This document shows positions 10,984-57,835 of a DNA stretch of 64,000 nt, piece by piece. The DNA lies in the NCBI GenBank assembly GCA_937879955.1, contig CALFMK010000001.1, positions 361,853-425,852 of the forward strand, read 5' to 3'. The stretch comes from an uncultured bacterium (GTDB taxonomy: Bacteria > Patescibacteriota > Minisyncoccia > Phycocordibacterales > Phycocordibacteraceae). Both the position numbers and the translations under genes were made by a program. Position 1 is the first letter of the stretch, and each line of letters opens with the position of its first letter. A model generated the notes under the pieces. It saw only the letters and a program-made list of their open reading frames with translations. It made no database searches and was not told the origin of the DNA.

Positions 10984-11032
10984 GGCCAGCTCCTTATGGC
11001 TGCGTGAAAGGACAATGATGGCGCTGATGCAT

Positions 11033-11079
11033 CCATCGCCCGCGCCTCCTCGCTCTATACGCGGAGGCGCGGGCGATGG
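11033..11079. repeat. 17-bp perfect inverted repeat (CCATCGCCCGCGCCTCC / GGAGGCGCGGGCGATGG) with 13-nt loop
   Basis: Seen directly in the sequence. It lies between the CooC-like gene stop and the next gene start on the minus strand. There is no T-run, so it is not a canonical terminator. Confidence 0.7.
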
Positions 11080-11087
11080 GAACATCG

Positions 11088-11942
11088 CTAGAGCTTCGCC
11101 TTCTGTCGCTCCTCTTCGAACGCGCGCAGGCGCGCGAGCGTATCTTTCCCGTCTGCAGCCTTCTCCCGCAGGGTCGCGAGCATGGCCGTGCCTGCTGCGC
11201 GCGTCTCCTCGGAAAGGGCGGACATATCGTACGCGAGGAGCCCCGGATCGGCCGGGAGGCGACCGACGATACGGTCGCCCCACTCAGCATCGATCGCTTC
11301 CGTGAGCTCGGTCGCGCCCTGGACCTTGTTCACGACGACATAGAGCGGAAGTCCGGTGCGGTCGGCTATGCCCGCGACCTGCGCGAGCACGCGGATGCTG
11401 TTGCCATGCGGCTCGACCACCACGACCACGGCGTCCGCGCCGAGGAAGAGCCCGAAGTTCATCATGTCCGCGCCCGCGACGCCGTCGATGATCACGTCAG
11501 CACTGTTCCCTTCATCGAGGAGCGGGAGATAGTACTTGAGCGCGGCCGAATGCCCGTGCGCGCAGCGATCCGAGAACAGCACGTCCTCGCTACCGAGCCC
11601 GACCGCGATAAGGTCGACATTGTCCGAGACCGGCATGGAGACCTCGTCCGTGTACGGGTCCTTCGGCGACACCGTGAATGTCGGGAGTGCGCGGCCGTCG
11701 AGGACGATATCCTGCCAGCGTCGGTCCTCCCTCTGCCCCACCATCGCGCGGAACTCGTCATGACGGCGATGCATCGTCGGCGTCTCGCTCGTGACCGTAG
11801 CGCCGAGCAGGGACGCGAGGTCCATATTGTGGTCTGCATCGATGGCCAGGACCTTCCGTCCCTGTTCCTCGAGCAGCCGCGTTACGAGCCAGCTCACCGT
11901 ACTCTTCCCGCTCCCTCCCTTCCCGATGAATGCCAGTTTCAT
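11088..11942 (-). CDS. CooC/MinD-ParA-type P-loop ATPase (putative metallocentre insertion ATPase)
   Basis: Deviant Walker A (GKGGSGKST) then VLAIDADHNMDLASLLG, matching CooC-family nickel-insertion ATPases. Confidence 0.6.
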   Translation of the reverse strand: MKLAFIGKGGSGKSTVSWLVTRLLEEQGRKVLAIDADHNMDLASLLGATVTSETPTMHRRHDEFRAMVGQREDRRWQDIVLDGRALPTFTVSPKDPYTDEVSMPVSDNVDLIAVGLGSEDVLFSDRCAHGHSAALKYYLPLLDEGNSADVIIDGVAGADMMNFGLFLGADAVVVVVEPHGNSIRVLAQVAGIADRTGLPLYVVVNKVQGATELTEAIDAEWGDRIVGRLPADPGLLAYDMSALSEETRAAGTAMLATLREKAADGKDTLARLRAFEEERQKAKL

Positions 11943-13228: not shown

Positions 13229-13374
13229 CCCATCGGTACGAGAATGCGCCTGCCGGCACATCGCTGGCAGGCGTTTTCGTATGTATGCACTCACCCGTGA
13301 CTTTATCTTTTTTCTAGATTTTCTTTATAAAAAATTTATCTCTTTGTTATGTTCTCTTCAGTATCTTCATACCT

Positions 13375-14064
13375 ATGAAGAACACAGGGACACTCGCGTT
13401 CGGCGACATGCGCGATGCTACGGTGCGCACGCGCGCCGAGATAGGGTTCGACGAGCGGGATACCTGGCGCGACGCGTCAGCCACGTTCACGGATCATACC
13501 CTCACGATCCAAGGTCACCCGGTGATGGAAGACTGGGAGGAGGGGTACATGAAGCGCCTCGCGCACATCTGCGCGGCGCAAGGCGGAACCGTCCTCGAGG
13601 TAGGATTCGGCATGGGCATCTCGGCGCGCCACATTCAGCGGCATCCTATAGACCGGCACATCGTGATAGAGGCGAACTGGGACGTCTTCGAGCAGCTCGT
13701 CTCGTTCGCGAAGTCCGCTGCGCATCCGGTCTCTCCCCTCTTCGGGTTCTGGGAGGACACGACCGCCCTGCTTCCGGACGCGAGCGTCTCCGGCATCCTC
13801 TTCGATACCTATCCGCTCACAGAGGAGGAGATACACAGGAACCACTTCCCGTTCTTCAAGGAGGCGCATCGTCTCCTGCGCCCTGGCGGCGTACTCACCT
13901 ACTACTCAGACGAGATCGACCGCTTCTCTGCAATGCATCGCTCCCTGCTCGAAGAGGCCGGGTTCTCCGACATACAGGGAGAGATATTCCCGGTCACGCC
14001 GCCCGCGGACTGCCAGTACTGGAAGAGCGCGACGATACTCGCCCCTATCGTACGAAAATCATGA
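13375..14064 (+). CDS. guanidinoacetate N-methyltransferase (GAMT)-like class I SAM-dependent methyltransferase
   Basis: Matches eukaryotic GAMT along the whole length (HPVMEDWEEGYM; GGTVLEVGFGMGIS; ILFDTYPLTEE; PPADCQYW; C-terminal APIVRKS). Confidence 0.7.
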   Translation: MKNTGTLAFGDMRDATVRTRAEIGFDERDTWRDASATFTDHTLTIQGHPVMEDWEEGYMKRLAHICAAQGGTVLEVGFGMGISARHIQRHPIDRHIVIEANWDVFEQLVSFAKSAAHPVSPLFGFWEDTTALLPDASVSGILFDTYPLTEEEIHRNHFPFFKEAHRLLRPGGVLTYYSDEIDRFSAMHRSLLEEAGFSDIQGEIFPVTPPADCQYWKSATILAPIVRKS

Positions 14065-14474
14065 CTACACTCCCGAAAGGCGCATATGGACTCCTGCTCG
14101 CGTTCGACGGCTACGATGCCTCGAGCGAACGGTGCGCCGATGTCGACCTGCTGCGCTCGGTCCTGCTCGAGCTTCCCGAGACCATAGGCATGCGCAGGCT
14201 CGGCGAGCCGCACACGGTATCCGTCGACGAGCCAGGCATCTCCGGGCTCTCCGGATTCACGTTCATCATGGAGTCGCACATAAGCATCCATACGTATTCC
14301 GAGCGCGGATTCGTCACGGCGGACATCTATTCCTGCAAGTGGTTCGACGCCGACGTGGCGGCGCGCTTCCTCGCCGACGCGTTCGCGATACCCTCCTATG
14401 AGACCAGCCATGTCGTCCGCGGCCTTCGTTTCGACAAGCTCCCGATCGCTTCAGGGGCGCGCGAGCGTCCCTGA
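14061..14474 (+). CDS. speH: class 1b pyruvoyl-dependent AdoMet-decarboxylase-like proenzyme (SpeH-like, which could equally be an Arg/Orn decarboxylase)
   Basis: The self-cleavage motif FIMESHISIHTYSE (ES-H-S) is present. ATGA overlap with the upstream methyltransferase. Confidence 0.75.
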   Translation: MTTLPKGAYGLLLAFDGYDASSERCADVDLLRSVLLELPETIGMRRLGEPHTVSVDEPGISGLSGFTFIMESHISIHTYSERGFVTADIYSCKWFDADVAARFLADAFAIPSYETSHVVRGLRFDKLPIASGARERP

Positions 14475-15238: not shown

Positions 15239-17227
15239 ATGTTCGCATTCACCTACGCAGCTGCCATATTAGCGACCGCATTCGCGGTTGCGGCAGCTGC
15301 TCTTCTTTTCAGGAGACGACGCATGCTCGACCTCGCGCTCGCGGCATATCTCTTCTCCGGGACGCTCTGGATAGGCGGGAACGCGGCAGCTGACATTTCC
15401 TACGTACCCTGGTTCCTCGTGCTCTCGAGCCAGATCGCCTTCTTCGGCGGCATCCTCAATCTCTTCTGCTTCATCCTGCTCGTGGACCTGCTCCTCGACA
15501 ACGCGTTCCCGCCATGGCGCAGGCTGTTCCTCTACGGCATACCGTGCCTCGTCCTTGCCGTATTCGGCTTCTCGCCGTACGGGATCGTGAGCATGTCCTT
15601 CCCGGCCGGCATGCCCGCGCAGATCGTCCCGGGCGTGATCTACTCGTTCGCGCTCGTCTTCTACATCGCGGGCCTGGCGTACGGCCTCATACGCCTGTGC
15701 CGCAGCCTTTCCCGCGAGTACGACCAGCTCCGCCGCACCCAGCTCCTCTACGTCCTCATCGGCCTCATCCTCACCATGACCGGGCAGGTGGTCTTCGACG
15801 TGATCCTGCCGCTCCTTGGCGAGCTACGCTTCTATACGGTAGGTCCGCTCACTTCGGTATTCTTCGGCTTCGGGTGCGCGTACGCGATCGCGCGGCATCA
15901 TCTCCTCGATATACGCATCGTGGCGCAGCGCGGCCTCATCTATTCCGTCCTGCTCGCCGGGATCGTCGGGCTCTATGTCGGGCTCGTGATGATGATGAGC
16001 CTCGTGCTGAGCGACTCGACCAGCGCGAGCATCTTCTTCTCGGCAGGTATCACGGTCGTCGCAGGCATCTTCGGTGCGCCCGCCGTCGAGCGGTATTTCC
16101 GGAAAGCGACCGACCGCTTCTTCTTCAAGGATATCTATGACTACGGCGCCGCGCTGCACACGCTCTCGAGCGTGCTGCACGCGAACGTCGCCTTCGCGGA
16201 CCTCGTGCGCGAATCGGAATCTGCGCTCCGTGAGATCCTCCGCGCCACCTACGTGCACGTCACGCTCGGCAGCTCCACAAGGAACGCGCCTGCGAAAGAC
16301 GCGTCCTTACGCATCCCGATCGAGCTCGATGGGGATGATATCGGCTGCATCTATATAGGAGAGAAGCGTTCAGGCGACCCCTACTCCCCCGAGGACATCC
16401 AGCTGCTCGAGACGTTCGCGTACCAGGCCGCGACCGCGCTCTCCCGCGCGCAGCTCCATGCGGAGGCGGAGCAGCATGCGGCAGCCCTCGAGACGAAGGT
16501 ACGCGAGCGCACCCGCGAGCTCTCCGAGGCCCATGACCGCGAGCGCCAGATGATAAATGACATATCGCACAACCTGCAGACCCCGCTGACCGTGCTCCAG
16601 ACGAAGCTTGACCAGCTCAAGCCCACCATGAAGGACGCGGCGGAGATCCGCTCCTTCGAGCAGTCTCTCGCCGGCTTCTCCGCGTTCGTGTACGACCTCC
16701 TCGCGCTCGCCCGCCTCGAGGGCGGCAGGAAGCCCGAGTTCGAGCCGGTCTCCTTGAGCGCGCTCCTGCGCGACCTCGCCGAAGAGGTTGAGACGATCGC
16801 CGCGGATCGCGGCATCAGCGTGAAAAGAGACATCGCGAACGGCATGCGCGTGTCAGGCGACGAGCGCAGGCTCCGCGAGGCGTTCATGAACGTCGCGAGC
16901 AACGCGCTCAAGTACATGCGCGAGAGAGGCGAACGGCTCGTATCGCTCGTCGCGCATGCCGAGGACGGCATGGCCGTCGTCACGATTAAGGATACGGGTA
17001 TCGGGATCGCGAAGAGCGACCTTCCTCATGTGTTCGAGCGCTTCTATCGCGGCAAGGAGACACCGAAGGAGATGAAAGGCACGGGCCTCGGCCTCCCTAT
17101 CTCGAAGCTCATCGTCGAGCAGCACGGAGGCACTATCGCGGCCGAGAGCGAGCCCGGAGCCGGTACCATCATAGAGATACGGCTCCCGCTCATGCACGGC
17201 CAGGAGCGCTCCAGCCTCACCGACTAG
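15239..17227 (+). CDS. sensor histidine kinase with multi-TM (about 7 helices) N-terminal sensor domain
   Basis: H-box HNLQTPLTV and HATPase_c N/G boxes (NALKYM, DTGIGI, GTGLGLPISK) are present, and the N-terminal 280 aa are hydrophobic. Confidence 0.85.
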   Translation: MFAFTYAAAILATAFAVAAAALLFRRRRMLDLALAAYLFSGTLWIGGNAAADISYVPWFLVLSSQIAFFGGILNLFCFILLVDLLLDNAFPPWRRLFLYGIPCLVLAVFGFSPYGIVSMSFPAGMPAQIVPGVIYSFALVFYIAGLAYGLIRLCRSLSREYDQLRRTQLLYVLIGLILTMTGQVVFDVILPLLGELRFYTVGPLTSVFFGFGCAYAIARHHLLDIRIVAQRGLIYSVLLAGIVGLYVGLVMMMSLVLSDSTSASIFFSAGITVVAGIFGAPAVERYFRKATDRFFFKDIYDYGAALHTLSSVLHANVAFADLVRESESALREILRATYVHVTLGSSTRNAPAKDASLRIPIELDGDDIGCIYIGEKRSGDPYSPEDIQLLETFAYQAATALSRAQLHAEAEQHAAALETKVRERTRELSEAHDRERQMINDISHNLQTPLTVLQTKLDQLKPTMKDAAEIRSFEQSLAGFSAFVYDLLALARLEGGRKPEFEPVSLSALLRDLAEEVETIAADRGISVKRDIANGMRVSGDERRLREAFMNVASNALKYMRERGERLVSLVAHAEDGMAVVTIKDTGIGIAKSDLPHVFERFYRGKETPKEMKGTGLGLPISKLIVEQHGGTIAAESEPGAGTIIEIRLPLMHGQERSSLTD

Positions 17228-17283
17228 CGCTGCTTCCTCTGCGTGCGAGCCATCGATATAATCAGCAAAGACCGCCCCATCCG

Positions 17284-17560
17284 CATCGATATCGGGCTAG
17301 CTTCTATCCGGCTTTTAATAAAGCTGGTGTTGCGCGAGCTAGCCCGATATCGGCACAGGTAGGACGGTCGTTTGTGTCAGGAACAGATGTAGTCTACGAA
17401 TACTCCTTAAAGAAATTCTAAAGTTTAGATAAAGAAAAAATAAAACCACATGGTACGTTCTTACCCTTAAAGAGCCACGGCAGCGTTCACGCACCGATAT
17501 CGGACCGGCTCCAGCAGCTTCCAAAGAAGCAACCGGGGCGCGAGCCGGTCCGATATCGCT
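17284..17560. repeat. two long perfect inverted repeats sharing a CGATATCGG core, flanking an AT-rich stretch, in a 445-bp convergent intergenic spacer
   Basis: IR1 is CGATATCGGGCTAGC...GCTAGCCCGATATCG (15 bp). IR2 is CGATATCGGACCGGCTC...GAGCCGGTCCGATATCG (17 bp). Between them lies AAAGAAATTCTAAAGTTTAGATAAAGAAAAAATAAAA. Confidence 0.7.
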
Positions 17561-17619
17561 TCGCGAACCCGGGCATTCTACGCACCGCACGCTAACGGAA
17601 ACTTAAAGTTTGCATAGCG

Positions 17620-17656
17620 AATAGTTAAGAGCACGGGCCCCATGGACCCGTGCTCT
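17620..17656 (-). terminator. intrinsic terminator for the 17673..18392 gene (GAGCACGGG / CCCGTGCTC hairpin followed by a T-rich tract on the minus strand)
   Basis: 9-bp GC-rich stem immediately 3' of the stop codon, then TTAACTATT on the minus strand. Confidence 0.5.
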
Positions 17657-17672
17657 TACCTGAGAGAACGGA

Positions 17673-18392
17673 TTATGGATTGAACGTGAGGAAGCCGGCG
17701 ACCTTCGCGAGCTCGATCGGAAGCGCGACCGAACCGAGCGCGCCTACGCCCACCTCGTACTTGTCGAAGTAGATCGTCATGACGCCATCATTGATGGACC
17801 AGTCAGAGAGCGAATCGATCGTGAGCTCATCCACGTACTCCGGCGACACGACCATCTCGGTCGCGTCTCCCGGCCGCCAGTCGAGCAGCTGCTGCTTCAC
17901 GAGCGCGACGAACGCATCCTGCTGCTCCGGCCTCACCGCATCCTTGATGCCGAGCACGGTATCGCTTCCCTTCTTCGCGGTGAAGACCTTGTAGAGACTC
18001 ATGCCGTTCGCGCCCCCGGTATAGAGATACTCGGCCATGACGATCGATTCGGTAGCGTCGCCCGCAAGGTACGTGGCCTTGAGGTCGATCGAGTAGTGCG
18101 CGGGCGGCGCATCGTCCCCGAACTGCGCGCGCATCTCGGGCACCTGCTCGTCCGCGGATGCCTTGAACGTCGCGACGGTCTCGTCGACGAACATGCGCGC
18201 CGCGACCGCGACCGCGCTGTCTCCTGTTATCATCGGACGCGTGCCGGTGAAATTCGGCTCCTGGATGTCCTCAGGCACGATCGATACCGGAACGGCTTCC
18301 TTGCCGGGCTTCATGACGACGAAGGACGCGATGCCTACCGCGATGATGATAAGCGTAACGATGCCCAGGATGATCGTGTGAGAGGTTTTCAT
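17673..18392 (-). CDS. membrane-anchored DUF3298/DUF4163 (RsiV-like) domain protein
   Basis: N-terminal TM helix and extracytoplasmic domain. Composition resembles RsiV-type anti-sigma / peptidoglycan-deacetylase-associated domains. Confidence 0.45.
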   Translation of the reverse strand: MKTSHTIILGIVTLIIIAVGIASFVVMKPGKEAVPVSIVPEDIQEPNFTGTRPMITGDSAVAVAARMFVDETVATFKASADEQVPEMRAQFGDDAPPAHYSIDLKATYLAGDATESIVMAEYLYTGGANGMSLYKVFTAKKGSDTVLGIKDAVRPEQQDAFVALVKQQLLDWRPGDATEMVVSPEYVDELTIDSLSDWSINDGVMTIYFDKYEVGVGALGSVALPIELAKVAGFLTFNP

Positions 18393-18718
18393 AGGAATGT
18401 ATGTCTTCTAGCGTACGACTCCTCACGAGAAACGCAACGACACGCGGAACAGAAAGCATGAAAGCCGCCCGATACGGGCGGCTTTCTCTCTAGGAGGAGA
18501 TATGAGGCGAGCTGTTTACGGCTTAGTTGTAAAAAGGTTCCAGCGCGAAGCCGGAAATAAGCCGTAAATAGCTTGTCTCAAACGTCCTGTCAACATAATA
18601 CCCCGAAATGACGCGCGGGGCAATCAGGCCGTACGCTCTAAGGTTATGCACCGTGCCGCCGGACACCTCTATCGTGACCCGCCTATACTTAGAGCATTAT
18701 CTTTAAGGTCCTATCCTC

Positions 18719-18934
18719 ATGAACCACCTGAACACCGCTCCCGGATGCCATTGCAAGCATCATGTCGTACTGCCGATCCTCATCATCTTCTTCGGCATCC
18801 TATTCCTCCTAAACGCGCTCGGCATCGTGAGCGACGGATCCACCGCTCTCACCTGGCCGATCATCGTCATCTTCGGCGGCCTCGCGAAGCTCAGGGCAGG
18901 ACACTGCCGCTGCTACATGAATCCGTCTGCATAG
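18719..18934 (+). CDS. small membrane protein with CHCKHH and CRC motifs
   Basis: 71 aa with one central TM segment. Coding potential is modest. Confidence 0.3.
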   Translation: MNHLNTAPGCHCKHHVVLPILIIFFGILFLLNALGIVSDGSTALTWPIIVIFGGLAKLRAGHCRCYMNPSA

Positions 18935-27337: not shown

Positions 27338-27817
27338 TTAGTTGCAGTCCTGGTCGCCACTGGCAATCTTGTAGGTTGCCGTAGTAGTAGCGTCTCCGCT
27401 CGAATCAACGCAGTAGAATCCCGACGTCTTAAGAGGGACAGAAGCAGCCCATGCCGTTGCGGTCGCGAAGCAAGTCTCAGCCACGGTGTCATAGGAAGTG
27501 TTGCTACGACCATACGCGGTAATAGCAGCATCAACGCCATCTCCGATGACGTTCACCCCTACCGTGTTGCAGACGCTGGCGTAACTGTTGTTATTGCCGT
27601 CAAAATACAACTCAGCCTCCGCACGAGCATTCGCGAGGTTCGACTTCACTGCTGCGTCCGCGCCGCGATTACGCGCCGTGTTGAGGGACGCGAGCACTAC
27701 TGCCGAAAGGATACCGATAATTGCAATCACGACGAGAAGCTCGATGAGCGTGAAGCCGCGGGAAGTGTTGGGTGACGACATAATATTAGGATTCTTCATG
27801 AACGTACTATACGACAT
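27338..27817 (-). CDS. type IV pilin (major-pilin-like), paralogue 1
   Basis: SRG-FTLIELLVVIAIIGILSAVVLASLNTARNRGADAAVKSNLANARAEAELYF, then a variable Cys-containing C-terminal domain. Confidence 0.8.
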   Translation of the reverse strand: MSYSTFMKNPNIMSSPNTSRGFTLIELLVVIAIIGILSAVVLASLNTARNRGADAAVKSNLANARAEAELYFDGNNNSYASVCNTVGVNVIGDGVDAAITAYGRSNTSYDTVAETCFATATAWAASVPLKTSGFYCVDSSGDATTTATYKIASGDQDCN

Positions 27818-27905
27818 ACTTGCTACCCTTTAGGCAGAGGGTATATGGGGATAACAAAAGCGCCCGTTTCGCGGGCGCTTTTGCAGGTAACAGAATCTGC
27901 AGGGC

Positions 27906-28376
27906 CTAGCAGGCGTAGTCAGTACCGCTTGTGATAATACCTACTGCAGAGGTCGTAGCAGCACCGGTGCTGTCGACACAGTAGACGGTCGTACCACCCT
28001 TGAGACCGACGGCCGCTGCCCAAGCAGTTGCGCTCGCGTTACATACCGCAGTCGAACCAGAGCTACCGGCGCTGTTTGTGCTGTAGGAAGTGAAGCCGGC
28101 AGCGGCAGCAGCAGCCTGAACACTGTCTCCGATGACGTTGGCTGTCGTCGTGTTCGCACAAACGCCGGTATAAACATTGTTGTTGCTGTCATAGAACAGC
28201 TCAGCCTCCGCGCGAGCATTGGCGAGGTTCGACTTAACAGCTGCGTCCGCGCCGCGATTACGCGCCGTGTTGAGGGACGCGAGGACGACGGATGAGAGGA
28301 TGCCGATGATGGCGATCACGACGAGAAGCTCGATGAGCGTGAAGCCGCGTTCAGCCTTAAGGTGTCCGAGAGTCAT
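27906..28376 (-). CDS. type IV pilin (major-pilin-like), paralogue 2 (tandem duplicate)
   Basis: N-terminal ~60 aa nearly identical to the 27338..27817 product. Its C-terminal domain has diverged. Confidence 0.8.
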   Translation of the reverse strand: MTLGHLKAERGFTLIELLVVIAIIGILSSVVLASLNTARNRGADAAVKSNLANARAEAELFYDSNNNVYTGVCANTTTANVIGDSVQAAAAAAGFTSYSTNSAGSSGSTAVCNASATAWAAAVGLKGGTTVYCVDSTGAATTSAVGIITSGTDYAC

Positions 28377-41362: not shown

Positions 41363-41887
41363 CTAGGACGCGCACGTGGGCGAGAAGTACGATATGTCGA
41401 GATTAATATTGTCATTCCTGGTCGGCGACCCGCTCGATCCATGCAGCCCGTCCGGTCCGGCCGAGAATACGATGTCCTTCCTGCAATTGCCGCTCTCAAG
41501 CTCGTTCTCATCAATAAGATAGACATTCCCCCATGGATCCCTGAATCCGCTCGCGATGAACGCGTCCAGCATGCCTCCGGATGCGGTGTTTATCTTCCCG
41601 AACTGCGTCTGCATGAACGAGATGCAGCTTGCGCTATTTATATTTGCGTCGATGCATGCACCTGCGCTGTTGCCGGAGCCGGTTAGGTCGGAAAGTATCT
41701 TCCCGCTACTCAGTCGCGCCTGATCTATGGCAAGCGCAACCTGGCGCAGAGCCTGCCTGGTCGCTGCCACGCGAGCGCGTTCGCGGGCGGTCGACAAGGA
41801 CGCGAGCACCACCGCAGACAGCACGCCGATGATCGCGATCACCACGAGGAGCTCGATGAGGGTGAAGGCGCGGTATGCGGATCTCAT
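41363..41887 (-). CDS. type IV pilin-like protein (tandem paralogue A)
   Basis: N-terminus YRA-FTLIELLVVIAIIGVLSAVVLASLSTARERAR. The C-terminus has GFRDPWGNVY and a Cys pair. Start set at MRSAYRA. Confidence 0.7.
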   Translation of the reverse strand: MRSAYRAFTLIELLVVIAIIGVLSAVVLASLSTARERARVAATRQALRQVALAIDQARLSSGKILSDLTGSGNSAGACIDANINSASCISFMQTQFGKINTASGGMLDAFIASGFRDPWGNVYLIDENELESGNCRKDIVFSAGPDGLHGSSGSPTRNDNINLDISYFSPTCAS

Positions 41888-41940
41888 GCGTCTAATGATA
41901 CCAGAGGCGTCCTTTCGTTCAGGTTCGACCAGGAAGACTA

Positions 41941-42468
41941 TCAGGATGCGCACGTAGGCGAGAAGAAGGAGAGATACAAATTGATATTATCGAGACGCGT
42001 CGGCGAGCCGCTCCCTCCATGGATACCGTCGGGTCCGGCGGAGAAGACCAGGTCCTTAGTACTACAGGAGCCATTCTCAAGCTCGTTCTCATCGAAGAGG
42101 TAGACGTTCCCCCACGGATCCCTGAAACCGCTCGCGATGAACGCGTCGAGCATGCCTCCAGATGCCACATTTATCTTGGTAAATTGCGCTTGCATGTTTG
42201 CAAGACATCCCGCGCTATTCATATTCGGATCAACACAAGCAGCCGCGCTGTAGGTTGAATTAGTAATATCTTTCAATACCATGCCGCTCTGAAGACGCGC
42301 CTGATCTATGGCGATAGCCACCTGGCGCAAGGTCTGCTTCGCAGAAGCGGTCCGCGCGCGGTCGCGGGCGGTCGACAAGGACGCGAGCACCACCGCAGAC
42401 AGCACGCCGATGATTGCGATCACCACGAGGAGCTCGATGAGGGTGAAGGCGCGGTATGCGGATCTCAT
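41941..42468 (-). CDS. type IV pilin-like protein (tandem paralogue B)
   Basis: About 70% identical to paralogue A across the full length, with an identical N-terminus and C-terminal SPTCAS. Confidence 0.7.
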   Translation of the reverse strand: MRSAYRAFTLIELLVVIAIIGVLSAVVLASLSTARDRARTASAKQTLRQVAIAIDQARLQSGMVLKDITNSTYSAAACVDPNMNSAGCLANMQAQFTKINVASGGMLDAFIASGFRDPWGNVYLFDENELENGSCSTKDLVFSAGPDGIHGGSGSPTRLDNINLYLSFFSPTCAS

Positions 42469-42492
42469 GCGTCTAATGATACCAGAAGCGTA

Positions 42493-47959: not shown

Positions 47960-48033
47960 GCACCCTTAGCTCAGTTGGTTAGAGCACCGAGCTTATACCT
48001 CGGCGGTCCTTGGTTCGAGTCCAAGAGGGTGCA
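47960..48033 (+). tRNA. tRNA-Ile with anticodon TAT (UAU)
   Basis: Acceptor GCACCCT/AGGGTGC, D-arm TAGCTCAGTTGGTTAGAGC, perfect anticodon stem CCGAG/CTCGG, loop CTTATAC, T-loop TTCGAGT. Confidence 0.7.
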
Positions 48034-48106
48034 CCGATTTACGGGAAGTGCGTAGACGGGGCTTTTCTGGTACGGTGCAATCAGGTAAGACAGAAGGAGT
48101 ACTGAT

Positions 48107-51138: not shown

Positions 51139-51258
51139 CGCAGCGGCATCACTACCGGAGAATCGCTTGGGATAGCCGGCGATTCTCCTCACTTTCAGGT
51201 ATTCATTCTGTGCGGGCCCCTCCCGTTCTGGAACCGTTCTCCTGACCGGTTCCAGAAC

Positions 51259-51667
51259 GGGGGTGACCGGCTTTGACGGTCCTGTACTTTGAGAGACGTG
51301 CGGCGCGGTGGAAGGATGCTGACCACCTAAAAACGCATTCACCCAAACTTGCCAAGAACACTCTTGCAAGCGTGAAGTCCCCGTACTTCGGTATGAAGGA
51401 TTTCGCGTTCGCTTACGCGTAAAAGCTTCGCGCTTTCGCCTGAGCGACGTTCATGCAGTCCCGTTCCTTCAGGGGTCTGTATGGGCGGAATCATCTGAAG
51501 GATCGGTATCGCGGCTTTCCCAGGCCACGGCTTAAAAGACGGGATCAGGCAGGGGCGTTTTCGCTAACGTTCCTATTCCCCTGCCGAAGCTTCAACGTTA
51601 GCTACGCGCCGTAGACTCGCTCTTGAAGCAGGATTCGGACCGGAGTTCGACTCTCCGCACCTCCACC
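51259..51667 (+). ncRNA. ssrA: tmRNA (ssrA), standard one-piece
   Basis: 5' GGGGGUGACCGGCUUUGACGG matches the tmRNA 5' consensus. The 3' tRNA-like end is GGACCGGAGTTCGACTCTCCG-CACCTCC-A-CC, whose acceptor is complementary to the 5' end. It lies 370 bp downstream of smpB. Candidate tag ORF is ...KSPYFGMKDFAFAYA*. Confidence 0.7.
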
Positions 51668-51693
51668 GATATAGAACTATGTAGAAATACATA

Positions 51694-51733
51694 GAACATT
51701 AGAAAACCGCCTCATGGGCGGTTTTCTAATGTT
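51694..51733. terminator. 18-bp perfect hairpin (GAACATTAGAAAACCGCC-TCAT-GGCGGTTTTCTAATGTTC) between ssrA and the convergent DUF305 gene
   Basis: Seen directly in the sequence, with T-tracts inside the 3' arm on both strands. Confidence 0.55.
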
Positions 51734-51746
51734 CTACAGCTAGGAG

Positions 51747-52142
51747 CTACTTCCCGTACCAAGCTTTCTGCCAATCTTGCATCTCTTTAATCTCGGCGTT
51801 CTGTGCAGAGATTATGTTCTTTGCCAGGTCCTTTATCTCTTGATGCTTTGCATCCTTGAGGGCTGCCTCTGCCATTACTACTGCTCCCTGATGATGCATG
51901 ATCATCTCGCTCAAGAACGCTTGATCAAATGCATCTCCTGTTTTTCCAGAGAGACCCTGCATCATGGAATCCATTTCTCCCTGCATCCCGTTCATTGGAC
52001 CTCCCATGGTCGTTCCGTCGGCCATCATATGGCCACCAGTATTTACTACTGGCTCGGAAACCTTATTCATGCCCAGAGCGTATCCACCGCCGGCACCGAT
52101 AATAAGTGCGACGAGCCCGATAACAACTACGTTCTTTTCCAT
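51747..52142 (-). CDS. DUF305 family protein (secreted or membrane-anchored)
   Basis: DQAFLSEMIMHHQGAVVMAE...AEIKEMQDW matches the DUF305 signature. It is in a lower-GC region. Confidence 0.6.
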   Translation of the reverse strand: MEKNVVVIGLVALIIGAGGGYALGMNKVSEPVVNTGGHMMADGTTMGGPMNGMQGEMDSMMQGLSGKTGDAFDQAFLSEMIMHHQGAVVMAEAALKDAKHQEIKDLAKNIISAQNAEIKEMQDWQKAWYGK

Positions 52143-52182
52143 AGAGTTTAATTAGATTAGATAAGTAGAGAGTTTGCTAAAT

Positions 52183-52551
52183 CTATGGAGCCTTAGGGTG
52201 AAGAATCCCGCGTGAGAATAGCTCTTGCAACAATGGAGGTGCTGGATAGAAACGTCTGCGATATCCGGGCGGCCGTTCGGGCCTTGGAACAATGGGCCAA
52301 ACCCTTGCGAGAATAAAGACAGGTATGGCAAACGTGAGAATCTCGACAAGTGCGATAGTAAACGTATTCTGCCAGCTTGTTATGTGGTCCAAGGCTGACA
52401 TGGGACAGAGCGAAGTTTCACCCTGCATGAAGGGACATCCGCCAGGTGTCTGGTCCATAGGCATGGCCATTAAAAACAGCATCAGGAGAGGAACGGTGAG
52501 CACGAGGAGTAGCGTCCCCCAGGAACCAGCCCTCTGTATCTGCTCGGTCAT
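52183..52551 (-). CDS. small membrane protein with Met/Cys-rich motif (MPMDQTPGGCPFMQGETSLCPM), a putative metal-binding site
   Basis: Two or three TM helices. The Met-rich Cys pair is reminiscent of Cu(I)-binding motifs. Confidence 0.4.
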   Translation of the reverse strand: MTEQIQRAGSWGTLLLVLTVPLLMLFLMAMPMDQTPGGCPFMQGETSLCPMSALDHITSWQNTFTIALVEILTFAIPVFILARVWPIVPRPERPPGYRRRFYPAPPLLQELFSRGILHPKAP

Positions 52552-52630
52552 GCACTCATTCTATACCTATTGTTTATGGACAAAAGGTACACTTCTTCTA
52601 GGTATTACTGGCTCACAGCACATAAATTTT

Positions 52631-53089
52631 ATGACCCCCAGAGACACGTCATACGGCAAGCTGGCCCTAATGGCCGGACTTCACTTAATCGCAATGTTCT
52701 TCCTCATGTTCGCGATGGTAAATACTTTTGCGAACGCCATTCCGAATATTAACTTCGTCTATATGGCCGCTCTTATGACCGCGCCGATGCTCATTCTCGA
52801 GATACTTCTTATGGGAATGATGTACAAGGACAGGAAATTAAATGTGACGGTTGTTTGTTTTGGCCTTATACTCCTTGCGGTTTCATTCTTACTTATTCGA
52901 TTCCAGACAGGTGTTGGAGACAGGGGGTTTCTCCAATCCATGATTCCTCATCACTCAGGAGCAATTCTCATGTGCGAGAAGGCAAACATCACTGATCCTG
53001 AGATCAAACAGCTGTGCGACGACATTATTCTCAGCCAGCGACAGGAGATAACTCAGATGAAAGAAATTCTTAGTCGACTGGACCGATAA
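52631..53089 (+). CDS. DUF305 family protein (second copy)
   Basis: Two TM helices, then MIPHHSGAILMCE...QEITQMKEIL, which is the DUF305 signature. Start set at MTPRD, since the upstream ORF-track extension overlaps the minus-strand gene. Confidence 0.55.
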   Translation: MTPRDTSYGKLALMAGLHLIAMFFLMFAMVNTFANAIPNINFVYMAALMTAPMLILEILLMGMMYKDRKLNVTVVCFGLILLAVSFLLIRFQTGVGDRGFLQSMIPHHSGAILMCEKANITDPEIKQLCDDIILSQRQEITQMKEILSRLDR

Positions 53090-53324
53090 ATGGCAAATCG
53101 AGGTAGGTTCTAATCTGAAAGCACCCGACTTCCATGTTTGTATGGACTGGTTGGCCTCTGCTCATTTTGACACCCTACCAACTGTCCGCTACAGAAAGGA
53201 AATACGAAGCCCTGCTTTCCAGTCATGAGGCTCTAACTTCGTGTAGCCACTTCCATCCAGTTTCAATAAAAGGCCTCTTCGGAGGCCTTTTATGTTGGCA
53301 CGTCTTGACGGTTTTTTTGGGGTT

Positions 53325-53981
53325 TTATTCTGCGCGCAGACTATCTACTATCTGGTCCACAACACTATCAGGGATGACCTGATCTTCTGAGCGGTCATAC
53401 CACATGGCTATGACTGGATACGAGGGATTCTTTGTCTCGATGAACGTTACGAAGAAAATCTCATCGCCGCACTCTTCGAAACCATTGCACGCAGGCAGAT
53501 ACCCGACCTTAACTACCGTTAGCCCGTGGGCGTTGACGCTCTTGGCGCAGGAAAGCGGGTATAGACCCTGATCGCAATACTTGTGAATGTCCCAGGTGCG
53601 AAGCGTATCTTCACGCGAAGGCTCGCGCGGGGTCGGATACTGTGCGAACAATGCGCTCTCTGCCGACATGAACCAGAGCGTGCCATTCTTGCCGGCAACT
53701 CCTAAGTAACGGTGATCGCACTGATCTTCGGGGGTACGGAGTTCCGGCGGACAGTCGCCCCGCTCCCTCACCGCTTCCTCTATAGGGCTTTCGAGCGAGT
53801 ACTCGAAGGCGATGCCTAGGGCGGGGCTTACATAGGTGCGCGTAGAGTACGTATCTTGCACGCTGTGGTTCTCCCCTTCCCTGGTCACTCCTAGCATGAA
53901 TCCGAGAACTGCCACGATGACGAGCGCGACCCCGAGCAGCAGCGCGCGGAGGAGCGGAGAATTGATTATGGTCTTATACAT
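53325..53981 (-). CDS. membrane-anchored hypothetical protein with Cys-rich extracytoplasmic domain
   Basis: N-terminal TM and several Cys pairs. No family recognised. Confidence 0.45.
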   Translation of the reverse strand: MYKTIINSPLLRALLLGVALVIVAVLGFMLGVTREGENHSVQDTYSTRTYVSPALGIAFEYSLESPIEEAVRERGDCPPELRTPEDQCDHRYLGVAGKNGTLWFMSAESALFAQYPTPREPSREDTLRTWDIHKYCDQGLYPLSCAKSVNAHGLTVVKVGYLPACNGFEECGDEIFFVTFIETKNPSYPVIAMWYDRSEDQVIPDSVVDQIVDSLRAE

Positions 53982-53985
53982 ACGA

Positions 53986-54795
53986 TTATGTTGCTAGCCA
54001 GCCCCCGTCAACATAGAACGTTGCCCCCGTGCAATAGCTTGACTCATCGGAAGCAAGGAACGCGACCAGTGCTGATACCTCCTCTGGCTTTCCCATTCGC
54101 TTGAGCGGTATCCCTGCAAGCATCTGATCGCGCGTCTCACTCGTGGCATCGGAATTTCGCACCATGGGCGTATCTATGGCTCCTGGAGCGATCGCGTTTA
54201 CAAGAATGCCGTGCGGCGCAAGCTCGATCGCCAGCGCTTCAGTCATGGCGATAACTCCGCCCTTCGACGCCGCGTAATGCACGCCTCCAGCGATGCCGAT
54301 TCCCACCTGCCCAGAGGCTACGGAGGAGATATTGATTATCCTCCCGCCTCCATCCCTAGCCATCTCCTGTGCAGCGCGCTGAGCGCACAGGAACTGTCCC
54401 TTGAGATTCACATCGAGCATGCGGACCCATGCTTCTTCCGTAAGCTCAAGCGCAGGCGCGGTCTCGTAGATGCCTGCGTTATTCACCAGGATATCCAGCC
54501 GACCATACTTCATGATGATGCCGGCAATGACCTCATTGACTTCATGCTTCTGGGATACGTCGAGACGGAAGCAGGTGGACTCGCTATCGCACACCTCATT
54601 CACCTCCTGCATGACCCTGCGGCAATCGTTCAGATTCACATCGGTAATGATCACCGTTGCTCCCTGCTTGGCGAGCGTGAGCGCGTGAGTGCGACCCATT
54701 CCCCTTCCTGCCCCCGTAATGAGCGCGACTTTGTCTTTGAGGCTGAACATGCGCATGGCGTTAGGTTGGATAATGTATGGCGCGTCTTCTAGCAT
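53986..54795 (-). CDS. SDR-family oxidoreductase (short-chain dehydrogenase/reductase)
   Basis: TGAGRGMG cofactor motif, NNAG, and the catalytic S...YAASK triad. Confidence 0.85.
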   Translation of the reverse strand: MLEDAPYIIQPNAMRMFSLKDKVALITGAGRGMGRTHALTLAKQGATVIITDVNLNDCRRVMQEVNEVCDSESTCFRLDVSQKHEVNEVIAGIIMKYGRLDILVNNAGIYETAPALELTEEAWVRMLDVNLKGQFLCAQRAAQEMARDGGGRIINISSVASGQVGIGIAGGVHYAASKGGVIAMTEALAIELAPHGILVNAIAPGAIDTPMVRNSDATSETRDQMLAGIPLKRMGKPEEVSALVAFLASDESSYCTGATFYVDGGWLAT

Positions 54796-54857
54796 CGAGC
54801 GGTGCTCAGGAAAAGGAAAAGCACCTTGTCACGCGTGATGATCTCGTACGCCATATA

Positions 54858-55391
54858 TCAGTTCATGAGCATTACTGCGTAATTGATAGCCACGGCAATC
54901 ACGACCCAGGCGAGATAGGGCGCGAGCAGCCATGCAGCAGCCTTCGATGAGTTCTTCACCCGCAGGATAAGGACCAGCACGGATACGCCGACGACGACCG
55001 CTGCCCATAAGGCAGGCACGAGCTGATGAATCCCGAAGAAGAGATAGTTCCAGAGAAGGATCAGGAGCGCGTTGCCCATGTACACGAGCACCGTGCTCCG
55101 GAACGCTCGTGTCTGCTCTTTCTGCGCATCACAAAAGATGCTTAGCGATAGGACCGTAGTTACGAACAGCGTTCCCCATATGGCCGCGATGACGAGCTCG
55201 GGCGGAGTCCATAGCGGCGTATGCAAGCTTCCGTACCAACCCAGACCGAGAGTCGTGATGATGCCGATCGCAAAGAACACCAGGGTGGCTGCGTAGAAGA
55301 TGAAGAAGTCACGGACAACCCTGTCGCTAAACGCGCCCGGGGGCAGGCTCGTCACTGCAGGGATGTTAGGGGTACTCATGTCTTGGATCAT
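54858..55391 (-). CDS. tspO: TspO/MBR (tryptophan-rich sensory protein) family
   Basis: Five TM helices with Trp-rich loops (WNYLFF, LLAPYLAWV). Confidence 0.65.
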   Translation of the reverse strand: MIQDMSTPNIPAVTSLPPGAFSDRVVRDFFIFYAATLVFFAIGIITTLGLGWYGSLHTPLWTPPELVIAAIWGTLFVTTVLSLSIFCDAQKEQTRAFRSTVLVYMGNALLILLWNYLFFGIHQLVPALWAAVVVGVSVLVLILRVKNSSKAAAWLLAPYLAWVVIAVAINYAVMLMN

Positions 55392-55457
55392 AGTCGTAAT
55401 CTGAGGATAGCTTCCTATATGTTCGTCATGTAACCTTTCATGCCTTCCGCCGGGCTT

Positions 55458-55943
55458 CTACAGAGGCGGCTCCGCCGGATCGACTCGAGTGAGTACCTGG
55501 TCCGTGCCTGTACCGAACGTAAAGTCTCCCCACCTGACCCAGGCAGGCGAGAGGCGGTAGAACTTGAGCTCGCTGCTATCAAGATGCGATAGCGGTATGC
55601 CGTACTGCTTGTCGGTCATGAGCCTGTGCACGAAGCCAGTGAGCAGCGGGTCATTGGTGGCGGTGTACGTAAGGTCAGCAACATCCCCTTCTACCTGAAT
55701 AGTCTTCGGAGTTCCCGCCTCTGACACAACGAAAGCAGCTTTCTGATTGGAAGTCAGGTCGGCAGCCTTTCGAGTGTTCTTGAGGGTTATGAAATAAATA
55801 TTGAATGCGTCATCGCACGTATAGTAAATCGTGCGTGCGTGCGGTTCTCCGGCACGAGAGACAGTGGCCAACACGCCAACATCATGGTCGACCAAGAATG
55901 ACAGAGCCTCGTCTCGCTCTCCTTCTGTGTCTGACTCCTTCAT
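55458..55943 (-). CDS. pyridoxamine 5'-phosphate oxidase-like FMN-binding split-barrel protein
   Basis: GVLATVSRAGEPHARTIYY... is typical of the PNPOx-like / general stress protein 26 fold. Confidence 0.55.
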   Translation of the reverse strand: MKESDTEGERDEALSFLVDHDVGVLATVSRAGEPHARTIYYTCDDAFNIYFITLKNTRKAADLTSNQKAAFVVSEAGTPKTIQVEGDVADLTYTATNDPLLTGFVHRLMTDKQYGIPLSHLDSSELKFYRLSPAWVRWGDFTFGTGTDQVLTRVDPAEPPL

Positions 55944-56099
55944 GAAGCAATGGTACACCTTAATACAGCAACTCAATAGTCTGTATAGGAAGCCCGCTAT
56001 CCTTAAAACAAGGGTCCTAGGAGCCTGGCTTAAAAAGGGCTCTAGGAAACCACCTCCCTCTGGATTACAGCCTGTGTGAGTCCTTAATCAGAGCGCTAC

Positions 56100-56669
56100 T
56101 CAGTTCCCTCCGAGGCACCGCTGCTGGTAGACGCCGCTCTTATTCAGCCAGTCTGCACCGGTTCCGCTATATTTCTGCGCGCAATACGGCGGGTTGTTCC
56201 CCACTTCGTACGCGTTCGAGTAATAGCCACCATCGTTCGCGCCGATGTTCGTCTCTACATAGACTAAGAGCCCGTATGACTGCCGCGCATCGTCCGACTG
56301 TGACGCATAGGAATAGTAGTAGTTGCCCTGGGTCGCGTTCGAGAGCGATTCCGGTCTGATGGAGATGTACGGCGCGAGCGCGGTCGTGAGGGTATTGAGT
56401 CGGTCACAGTGCCCCCAGTTCTCCGTGAGCGATCCGCACGTGGACTCCGCACCGAGCCCGTGCTCGATCGCCGGATACGCGCCGTTCGCCGCATAGTAGA
56501 GCTCGAGCGCCTTCGCTATCTCTTTCGCCTGCGCGACGCGAGCCGCATCCCGAGCCTTCGCGCGCGCGGTATTGAGGGATGCCATGACCACCGACGAGAG
56601 GATGCCGATGATCGCGATGACCACGAGGAGCTCGATGAGGGTGAAGCCTGTAGGTCGATTCGTTTTCAT
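56100..56669 (-). CDS. type IV pilin-like protein (dispersed paralogue)
   Basis: PTG-FTLIELLVVIAIIGILSSVVMASLNTARAKARD N-terminus. Start set at MKTNRPTG. Confidence 0.7.
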   Translation of the reverse strand: MKTNRPTGFTLIELLVVIAIIGILSSVVMASLNTARAKARDAARVAQAKEIAKALELYYAANGAYPAIEHGLGAESTCGSLTENWGHCDRLNTLTTALAPYISIRPESLSNATQGNYYYSYASQSDDARQSYGLLVYVETNIGANDGGYYSNAYEVGNNPPYCAQKYSGTGADWLNKSGVYQQRCLGGN

Positions 56670-56813
56670 CGCCCTCAAGTATACAAGGCGTAGTGGCACG
56701 ATATGTCTGAGTCTGGTCCATGCATCTATGTACAATTTCATAAATATGTACTATAGTTACCACAAGGACGCCCGGATGGCGGGATAGGTCCTCAAGCTGA
56801 AGGATTATTCGGT

Positions 56814-57095
56814 ATGAAGAAAGCTCTTTTCGTGGGCGCCATGGCGGCCCTGCTCTTCACGAGCCAGGCCCAGGCCATCGGCCGCAACAGCGACAAGAAC
56901 CTCAGGATCGCCACCGCGACCAAGATCGGCGGCATCCTGAGCGACGACGTGACCCTGTCCGACGTCAAGCGCAAGATGCTGAGCGTGAAGTGGACGGCCA
57001 CGACGCCCTCCGGCACCTACCGCTGCGAAGCCGACGACATGGTCGAGCACGTCAACTGCATCAAGGTCGCCGCCACGGTCGCCGACAACAAGTAG
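56814..57095 (+). CDS. small secreted protein (signal peptide, two Cys)
   Basis: Signal peptide MKKALFVGAMAALLFTSQAQA and good codon bias. Followed by a terminator. Confidence 0.5.
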   Translation: MKKALFVGAMAALLFTSQAQAIGRNSDKNLRIATATKIGGILSDDVTLSDVKRKMLSVKWTATTPSGTYRCEADDMVEHVNCIKVAATVADNK

Positions 57096-57132
57096 CGAAG
57101 GCAGAACAACTCTTGCGTATCTATCACATGTA

Positions 57133-57162
57133 AGGCCCGATCTTCCGATCGGGCCTTTTTCT
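57133..57162 (+). terminator. intrinsic terminator (AGGCCCGATC-TTCC-GATCGGGCCT plus T5)
   Basis: 10-bp stem followed by TTTTTC. Confidence 0.7.
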
Positions 57163-57166
57163 ATAC

Positions 57167-57715
57167 CTAGAGTCGAAGGAGTACCTTGAGCGCGAGCGCG
57201 ATAAGGACGAGGGCGCCGCCAAGCTCGATGTGATTGCCGAACAGGTGCTTGCTTCGCCTTCCGAAATAGACCCCGGCGAGCGCCATGAGGAACGTGACGA
57301 TACCGATTACAGCGATCGCAACCGGAACGTTCACTGGCACGAAATTGAACGTGATACCCACGACGAACGCGTCTATGCTGGTCGCGACAGCGAGGAGCAG
57401 CAGCGTCGACGTCTTCGTGATATCCCTCTCACGCTCAGCATCCTCTTCGCCGAACGATTCGAAGAACATCTTGCCTCCGACGAGAAGGAGCAGGACGAAC
57501 CCGACGACGTGACCGTATGCGAGCAGATACTCGCGGAAGCCGAGCCCCAGCACGAGACCGAGGAGCGGCATGGCTGCCTGGAAGGCGCCGAAGAAGAGCG
57601 CGACCTTGAGCGCGGCGCGGGGCCGCACGTGCGCGAGCGCACCTGCACCAACTGCGACTATGGCAGCATCGAGTGCAAGGCTCACGGCGATGAGGACTAT
57701 CTCGAGAACTGACAT
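57167..57715 (-). CDS. mntP: manganese efflux pump MntP family
   Basis: Six TM helices with two DUF204 repeats (LALDAAIVAVGAG; TSIDAFVVGI). Confidence 0.7.
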   Translation of the reverse strand: MSVLEIVLIAVSLALDAAIVAVGAGALAHVRPRAALKVALFFGAFQAAMPLLGLVLGLGFREYLLAYGHVVGFVLLLLVGGKMFFESFGEEDAERERDITKTSTLLLLAVATSIDAFVVGITFNFVPVNVPVAIAVIGIVTFLMALAGVYFGRRSKHLFGNHIELGGALVLIALALKVLLRL

Positions 57716-57835
57716 GGCGTACCGAAGAGCATAACACCCGGATAGGAACCAGGCAGACGTCTCGCTATCGTATTCTTTATAGAGGACGCCGTATGCATCG
57801 AGTCCGAATACGGAACCTTGAGAAGCACAGCGGGG

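Follow-up and report, generated by a model that had tools for sequence, protein, structure and literature searches.

A convergent spacer with two long hairpins

We analysed a 64-kb stretch of DNA, hereafter called the window, and focus here on its intergenic spacer at positions 17228-17672, in which two long hairpins (H1 and H2) lie between the ends of two converging genes. The window is a chromosome stretch of ~62% G+C with five tRNAs and one transfer-messenger RNA (tmRNA), and the closest named relatives of its proteins come from metagenome bins of Patescibacteria or "Paceibacterota" (43-57% identity); judging by these names, the organism probably belongs to the Patescibacteria. The left border of the spacer is the stop codon of a histidine-kinase gene on the + strand (15239..17227; GAF, HisKA and HATPase_c domains), for which the orthologue of a related strain (contig L018) is called with an N-terminus 28 codons shorter, and the right border is the end of a DUF3298/PdaC(RsiV)-like gene on the - strand (17673..18392). 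Both genes terminate at the spacer, as had been predicted, and its length of 445 bp is indeed unusual: in a rough map of the open reading frames (ORFs) of the window, filtered by G+C content at third codon positions (GC3), the median gap is 71 bp and the spacer is the longest gap without a tRNA or tmRNA. The three gaps that exceed it contain the tmRNA, a tRNA, or ORFs that failed the GC3 filter. Elsewhere, the mechanical ORF list merges or mis-starts genes at 13281-14474, where one long ORF is listed and related contigs have two genes, for a 229-aa methyltransferase-like and a 137-aa AdoMet decarboxylase-like protein. The spacer as a whole folds more stably than its shuffled versions (z = -8.2 on the + strand and -7.2 on the - strand), and a promoter scan of 17000-17900 called no sigma-70-type promoter on either strand.

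H1 (17267..17372) has arms of 36 nt (17267-17302 and 17337-17372; 78% Watson-Crick) with a perfect core of 16 nt (17287-17302 with 17337-17352), and its loop contains an inner hairpin, CCGGCTTTTAATAAAGCTGG (17308-17327). H2 (17485..17568), the paralogue of H1 and the ancestral copy, has arms of 27 nt (17485-17511 and 17542-17568; 89% complementary) with a perfect core of 17 nt (17495-17511 with 17542-17558) and an inner hairpin, GCTTCCAAAGAAGC (17517-17530), which can be extended to 17511-17536 on the - strand. Common to both are CGATATCGG in the two arms and GCGCGAGC at the junction of the loop and the 3' arm, and on both strands H1 is preceded by an A-rich 5' flank and followed by a U-rich 3' flank. 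The two perfect inverted repeats of the original prediction are thus present, but the arm positions given deviate by 2-5 nt, and less of each arm is perfectly paired than claimed. A further copy of the motif had also been reported, and is found as CATCGATATAATC at 17251..17263; this is a partial extra copy of CATCGATAT, the start of the hairpin arm, and may mark the left junction of a duplication described below. L018 has CATCGATAT as a 9-nt direct repeat that matches the start of H2 perfectly. The motifs are commoner than expected by chance: CCGATATCGG occurs three times in the 64 kb against 0.17 expected (a count reached in 0/100 shuffles), with two of the three in the spacer, and CGATATCG nine times against 3.5, with four in the spacer.

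Three further elements follow H2. A linker motif, TCTACG (17577..17582), reads CGTAGAAT on the - strand, a sequence similar to a -10 box; L018 and a second related contig, L035, retain it, and the alignment places CGTAGACT at its position after H1 and CGTACGAT in a third contig, L020. Next comes a small hairpin, P (CGCTA..AAACT-TAA-AGTTT..TAGCG; 17590..17619), recognised by folding and by comparison with L035. The last is T (17623..17661), a terminator-like hairpin with 18-nt arms (89%) that ends 11 nt from the DUF3298 stop and agrees with the terminator hairpin predicted for the 3' edge of the spacer. The stem of T is strong, with only 3-4 U in the 8 nt beyond it on either strand; the terminator scan of the spacer required 5 T in 8 and called neither H1, H2 nor T.

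Tandem duplication and conservation of the fold

The spacer consists of a ~200-nt unit duplicated in tandem. The unit comprises a long hairpin H of about 85-105 nt, with an asymmetric loop that holds a small inner hairpin, followed by a short linker, the AT-rich P, and T. Copy 2 (17480-17672) is intact, and copy 1 is made up of the intact H1 and a decayed T, here termed T'. H1 and H2 align over their entire length, and the similarity continues beyond them: the segments after H1 (17373-17484) and after H2 (17569-17690) give a local alignment score of 43, against 19.7 +/- 3.5 for shuffled sequences (0/500). This alignment spans TCTACG, the palindromes CTAAAGTTT/TTAAAGTTT and the pair CCACATGGTACGTTCTTACC/CCCCATGGACCCGTGCTCTTACC, and stops at ACGG, just before the DUF3298 stop. 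Homology that extends past the hairpins into the linker, P and T argues for a tandem duplication of the whole H-linker-P-T unit.

The AT-rich core (17373..17484) is accordingly the decayed copy of the linker-P-T part. The core itself had been predicted, and it is real: its G+C content ranges from 27 to 37%, with 27% in 17400-17470 against about 62% in the window, and CTAAAGTTT lies inside it at 17419-17427. The second motif assigned to it, ACTTAAAGTTT, lies outside, 3' of H2 (17601-17611). In the core we recognise the linker motif TCTACG after H1 (17393-17398), the palindrome P' TCTAAAGTTTAGA (17417-17429), which is a surviving copy of P, and the T' remnant (about 17430-17480) in which an A-rich run has replaced the 5' arm. 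The core and its repeated CTTAAAG motifs are therefore leftovers of the duplicated P/T segment, an origin that the original prediction had missed, together with the orthologues of H2 and a third hairpin 1 kb away.

The comparison with L018 supports the reading of the core as a decaying copy. This strain is collinear with the window at the locus and 97.8% identical over the 9.7 kb shared (2.2% mean difference), and nowhere in the 9.7 kb are differences denser than in the core, which contains 20 in 110 nt together with indels of -1 and +2. No difference is found across 17228-17371 (144 nt, with H1) or across 17572-17693. An ORF of 83 codons on the - strand (17339-17590) was considered as a coding sequence and rejected: the two indels break the frame between the strains, and hence neither this ORF nor the AT-rich core is coding.

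Related loci were obtained by protein-based look-ups, which gave four kinase contigs, more distant loci and two abutting short contigs (L035 and L040). Orthologues of H2 are present in three related metagenomic contigs: L018, L020 (7875-7971) and, in part, L035. In L020 the kinase is 75% identical and a single H2-like hairpin starts 10 nt past its stop; beyond it come a small hairpin rich in A+T, a canonical terminator and H3, a third long hairpin that the window has as well. The DUF3298 protein of L035/L040 is 80% identical; L035 holds a partial H2 (the loop and the 3' arm), then P, T, 150 nt and the DUF3298 gene (-), and beyond this gene lie a pilin-like gene (+), a terminator, H3 and a LiaF-like gene. 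In all three genomes the module is situated between converging genes and beside terminator hairpins. T accompanies DUF3298 in L035 and is absent from L020, which has no DUF3298 gene. Neither the spacer nor the hairpin was found at kinase orthologues of 85%, 70% and 59% identity or at a DUF3298 orthologue of 52% identity, so that the H module occurs in a narrow clade only. Ancestrally it belongs to the 3' end of the kinase gene, and not to DUF3298. A scan of the contigs of a genome collection with the kinase returned only ~30% identical kinases of Actinomycetota/Thermoleophilia and no syntenic relative.

The present arrangement is explained by a short series of events. Ancestrally, a single H-P module stood directly 3' of the kinase stop and before a canonical terminator, an order kept in L020. 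In the lineage of the window, a DUF3298 gene with its own hairpin T adjoins the H-P module, and the H-P-T stretch was later duplicated. The kinase-proximal copy kept H1 intact and lost the G+C-rich arm of its terminator part, leaving the AT-rich core.

Folding has been retained despite considerable divergence. H2 of the window and its counterpart (H2') in L020, the most distant of the three contigs, are only 65% identical, and third codon positions of the histidine-kinase and GatA genes 62-68%. We aligned H2 of the window, of L018, of L020 and, in part, of L035 with H1 of the window; in this alignment of five sequences 94.3% of the pair cells are standard pairs, 10 of the 36 pairs have changed on both sides, and the covariation score is 0.32 against 0.19 in shuffles (0/500). 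When the partners were slid by 1-3 columns as a control, pairing fell to 28-41%. For instance, the inner hairpin GCUUC/GAAGC of H2 is GAUUC/GAAUC in L035, a GGAUCC-type stem in L020 and GCUUU/AAAGC in H1, and the P stem AAACU/AGUUU has become AAAUU/AAUUU in L035 by a compensatory double change. Compensatory substitutions across homologues, by which structured RNAs are recognised, are thus found here among five sequences of which H1 and H2 are paralogues. Only two blocks are invariant in all copies, namely CGATATCG in both arms and GCGCGAGC (- strand GCTCGCGC). Pairing retained at 65% identity, together with these blocks, argues that the structure is selected or otherwise actively maintained, with a few blocks that appear constrained in sequence. 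A functional hairpin of single-stranded DNA would give the same pattern of covariation.

The interval from the kinase to the terminator, H3 and LiaF-like gene (17228-18718) holds a different gene or set of genes in each related genome. Among the loci compared (the window, L019, L020, L021, L035+L040 and L037), its contents are a DUF3298 gene, which is the variable gene of the window; a 424-aa PG_binding/Flg_new protein with a 66-aa ORF; a protein of more than 486 aa; DUF3298 with a pilin-like gene; and a 125-aa ORF. The interval is thus a hotspot of gene content, and several of its variable genes look envelope-associated.

Known families and competing explanations

A scan of the window with Rfam 15 at the gathering threshold detected only the tmRNA and the tRNAs, and nothing in the spacer. 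Permissive Rfam searches of 17100-17800 and 18380-18730 gave only sub-threshold matches to microRNA precursors, as generic long hairpins do. We built a covariance model (R1) from four full hairpins, and with filters off it recovered only H1, H2 and their orthologues in the 64-kb window, which is about a tenth of a genome of roughly 0.6 Mb (a size inferred from a 591-kb contig), and in about 37 kb of related loci. The next matches of R1, at 25 bits or less, are unrelated long hairpins at 11018-11095 and 51207-51274. The first of these is the best non-homologous match (24.7 bits); its hairpin, with 27-nt arms and a 7-nt loop (11026-11086), lies between two - strand genes. A two-arm pattern scan of a metagenome collection, one without the L020 contig, gave 13 chance matches that form no hairpin, most of which look like coding sequence of unrelated G+C-rich organisms. 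Viral pattern scans gave one chance match for H2 and none for H3, and blastn found no match among phages and plasmids. The Rfam and BLASTN comparisons together matched no family or related sequence. No recombinase, reverse transcriptase or Tas signature is present among the Pfam hits listed for the neighbouring genes, two of whose proteins have no hit at all. A diversity-generating retroelement was considered and rejected, since the window contains no template repeat of the DUF3298 3' end, and so was restriction-site avoidance, as 30 GATATC sites against 21 expected show no depletion. The element is apparently new as a sequence family, yet of a familiar kind, an extragenic hairpin module at gene ends.

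Repetitive extragenic palindromic (REP) sequences and the hairpins formed by paired REPs (REPINs) are found in many dispersed copies per genome (tens to hundreds), and the gene of the REP-associated tyrosine transposase (RAYT, a Y1 transposase) is usually flanked by REPs. REPINs consist of two inverted half-sites around a spacer and are extragenic (PMC3337134, PMC3116915). PMC3733652 and PMC3337134 describe REPs, REPINs and bacterial interspersed mosaic elements (BIMEs) as often located between converging genes, with proposed roles in transcription termination and protection of mRNA 3' ends, and PMC3733652 describes a conserved GTAG or CGTC tetranucleotide at the end of the REP palindrome. The present module is likewise extragenic, forms a hairpin of about 100 nt from inverted half-sites and is patchy among relatives. 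It differs in having two adjacent copies produced by tandem duplication and none elsewhere in the 64 kb, in much longer stems with an inner hairpin in the loop, and in its lack of GTAG or CGTC at the stem foot; GTAG stands 10-20 nt away and is GTAC in L020. No RAYT is among the Pfam hits listed for the neighbours. The suggestion of a remnant miniature inverted-repeat transposable element (MITE) is not supported: read by eye, the extra 232-241 nt (17260-17491) do not end in inverted repeats, a clear target-site duplication was not found, and no other copy occurs in the window or the related loci. Moreover, CATCGATAT is repeated at 17251 and 17492 and also within H1, as expected of a duplication junction.

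Structures of 3' untranslated regions (3'-UTRs), and small RNAs derived from them, are another point of comparison; examples are CpxQ from cpxP and the retroregulation of lambda sib by RNase III. The module resembles these in following directly after the stop of a signalling gene and in ending with a terminator hairpin, and double-strand-specific RNases cut long, near-perfect duplexes like that of H (27-36 bp overall, of which 16-17 bp are perfect). It differs in being absent from several orthologous kinase genes, and it is known here from sequence alone. A plain bidirectional terminator has some features in common with the module as well: T (17623-17661) and the hairpin at 18460-18486 share this form, and the flanks of H1 are A-rich and U-rich. 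The loops of H, by contrast, are 26-34 nt long, structured and contain invariant blocks, and H2 is without U-tracts.

Integron attC sites carry R'' (RYYYAAC) and R' (GTTRRRY) boxes at the foot of the stem and occur with an integrase or a cassette array. With attC sites and clusters of attC sites lacking integron-integrases (CALINs) the module shares imperfect hairpins, 57-141 nt in those systems, beside variable genes, as well as strand asymmetry and a variable centre with conserved ends. The R''/R' boxes (RYYYAAC...GTTRRRY) are absent by eye, however: the feet of the stems are of the form GTT...AAC, in the wrong orientation (GTTCACG...CGCGAAC in H2), and the foot of H1 reads AAAGAC...GTCGTT. 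There is also no integrase among the listed Pfam hits of the neighbours and no cassette array in one orientation, and not every variable gene has a hairpin. The TIGR (tandem interspaced guide RNA) arrays described from Patescibacteria consist of palindromic stems and of loops with conserved short motifs, box C/D-like motifs occur twice per loop, and a Tas (Nop-domain) gene is adjacent (PMC12045711). In 17228-17672 no TGATGA/TCATCA is seen by eye, and no Nop-domain hit is listed for the neighbours, although two of them have no Pfam hit; only two units are present, 208 nt apart, with an inner hairpin in the loop instead of dual spacers.

We regard the locus as a real candidate for a structured element, RNA or DNA, of a narrow lineage that probably belongs to the Patescibacteria, and tentatively, with somewhat less than even confidence, read it as a structured module that acts in cis where converging transcription units meet, most likely in RNA. 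As a nucleic-acid structure at the 3' ends it would probably stop read-through and hold off exonucleases, or provide a site of double-strand-specific processing, with an effect like that of REP/BIME or sib. The stem segment CGATATCG and the loop junction GCGCGAGC would then probably form a protein recognition site. Synteny favours the + strand, as the module follows directly 3' of the kinase stop and precedes a + strand terminator in L020 and the window; this order is that of an element in a 3'-UTR, or of an RNA derived from one. Several points weigh against such a role. The strand is ambiguous, since the H2 orthologues of all three genomes fold 11-13 kcal/mol better on the - strand, mostly through G-U pairs that extend the inner helix. 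The asymmetry in wobble pairs (13-14 against 1) was obtained on an alifold structure itself derived on the - strand, and counts on the raw arms are about 5:3, hence we do not rely on it. As synteny and folding disagree on the strand, we claim only a strand-neutral cis module. The module is dispensable, being absent together with the spacer from the three kinase orthologues above, and invariant blocks of sequence are not something that a terminator or stabiliser alone would require. The covariation comes from only four or five sequences, H1 and H2 being paralogous, and in DNA compensatory change can be mimicked when quasi-palindromes are corrected by template switching. Action at the RNA level is moreover something that we infer from sequence.

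Of the original suggestions, a structured small RNA comes closest, in that the hairpins are conserved and covarying, but no convincing promoter was found and an element of the 3'-UTR or between genes fits at least equally well. In its strongest form, which we consider unlikely, each H would be an independent small-RNA gene on the - strand with a non-canonical promoter. The -10 box would then be the conserved CGTAGAAT/CGTAGACT/CGTACGAT, 8-15 nt before the foot of the hairpin, a TAnnnT box occurs at a fixed place before all copies of H, and H1 would end in a U-rich tail of its own, GGUCUUUGCUGAUUAUAU. The greater stability of the H2 orthologues on the - strand and the persistent G-U pairs of the inner helix, possible only on that strand, also agree with this, and the neighbouring H3 is flanked by promoter-like and terminator-like sites. 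The promoter scan speaks against it, with no -35 match at 16-18 nt, as do the lack of a U-tract behind H2 on the - strand and the position of the L020 hairpin, 10 nt from the kinase stop. It is still more doubtful that the hairpins are what remains of a miniature mobile DNA palindrome (REPIN/REP-like, PATE-like or a MITE), copied by a transposase encoded elsewhere and acting as hairpins of single-stranded DNA. Such an element would account for the size of about 85-105 nt, the two inverted half-sites around a spacer between converging genes, the presence or absence among relatives in a hotspot of gene content, and the GTAG in the conserved linker. Yet R1 found no further copy with filters off, the two copies stem from a local tandem duplication that included flanks outside the hairpins, and the H2 orthologue has kept its site despite divergence at the level of third codon positions. 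In addition, GTAG is displaced from the stem by 10-20 nt and replaced by GTAC in L020, no viral, phage, plasmid or metagenome sequence matched, and the listed Pfam hits of the neighbours include no transposase signature.

A protein-binding array in double-stranded DNA, with the four CGATATCG dyads as operators of a dimeric regulator, seems improbable. The dyads are spaced by 58, 150 and 56 bp, CGATATCG is locally enriched, and CGATATCG and GCGCGAGC are invariant while the surrounding stem positions vary; a cruciform might help binding, or the hairpin might be incidental. Both neighbours end at the spacer, however, so there is no promoter to regulate, and a duplex site needs none of the complementarity kept at changing positions of the stem, in the inner hairpin and in P. 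L020 has a single hairpin, in which one dyad has degenerated to CGATACCG. We give equally little credence to a neutral reading, in which the spacer is quasi-palindromic DNA that has no function, lies in a rearrangement hotspot and stays complementary through template-switch correction during replication instead of selection. The absence of the module from several close relatives, its visibly decaying part and the different genes of the hotspot in every genome agree with such neutrality, but three separate helices, those of the H stem, the inner hairpin and P, persist despite only 62-68% identity at third codon positions, and the block GCGC of GCTCGCGC, which lies in the loop and is not palindromic, is invariant. 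It is very improbable, and largely refuted, that the spacer is a replication origin or partition site, or an invertible promoter between the inner arms of H1 and H2. The only attraction of this idea is the AT-rich core flanked by inverted repeats, and this core is a degenerate duplicate, the fastest-diverging stretch, and lies in the same orientation in L018. The cumulative GC skew runs monotonically through 17 kb without a turn, no DnaA-box TTATCCACA or parS-like TGTTTCACGTGAAACA sequence is seen by eye in the spacer, no recombinase is among the listed Pfam hits of the neighbours, and both flanking genes point inward.

Hairpin H3, the wider window and significance

The third long hairpin, H3 (18495-18588; arms 18495-18528 and 18555-18588), lies ~1 kb away, beyond the DUF3298 gene, and has the same architecture as H1 and H2 with a different sequence. 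It stands next to a canonical bidirectional terminator (18460-18486), which the scan called on the - strand. The block of terminator and H3 (18460-18625) recurs in L020 (8047-8207), where it shares one spacer with the H2 orthologue, and in L040 (505-670). H3 is 90% identical to its counterpart in L020 and 82% to that in L040, compared with 62-68% at third codon positions, and is therefore constrained in sequence. Promoter-like boxes are found to the right of H3, on the - strand in the window (TTGCCC-17-TATTAT) and on the + strand in L020 (TTGTCT-17-TATAGT), and its inner hairpin with a run of five U is terminator-like on the - strand in 3/3 genomes. H3 matches no Rfam family and is a candidate for a small RNA of ~135 nt, or for a control site of the LiaF-like gene (18719-18934). 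It is conceivable, although rather unlikely in our estimate, that H1, H2 and H3 represent an undescribed class of Patescibacteria hairpin RNAs that regulate the variable envelope genes of the hotspot in trans or in cis. In form they would share a long stem, with one segment recognised by a protein and a middle part free to covary, and an inner hairpin inside an asymmetric loop; they would be encoded at the gene-swap hotspot that separates an envelope-sensing two-component system from a LiaF-like gene.

In this genome, gene ends seem as a rule to be marked by long-stem hairpins. The tmRNA gene (51259-51668; 94 bits) has a hairpin with 28-nt arms upstream (51212-51271) and a perfect 20-bp hairpin downstream (51692-51736), followed by a stretch of low G+C content (48-57% compared with ~62%); the region 51259-56000 may be an island integrated at ssrA. 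At 47960-48035 ARAGORN calls a tRNA-Ile with the anticodon TAT (UAU), which is uncommon in bacteria, where AUA is usually read by a modified CAU. Families of direct repeats of 100-215 nt (60-87% identity) occur at 27570-28352, 41489-42491 and 56548-58327, as tandem pairs 581-589 bp apart at two of these loci and as more distant copies at the third. They probably represent paralogous small genes.

To our knowledge, almost nothing is known about non-coding regulation in the uncultivated, small-genome Patescibacteria, in which long spacers are rare. The locus described here is a small and clean case, with a structured, covarying module that matches nothing in Rfam, a tandem duplication that can be dated, and one copy still in the course of decay. 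If the module is not expressed, the locus is a lineage-restricted palindromic spacer. If it is expressed, H and H3 could seed new RNA families and would offer a handle on how Patescibacteria end or process converging transcripts.

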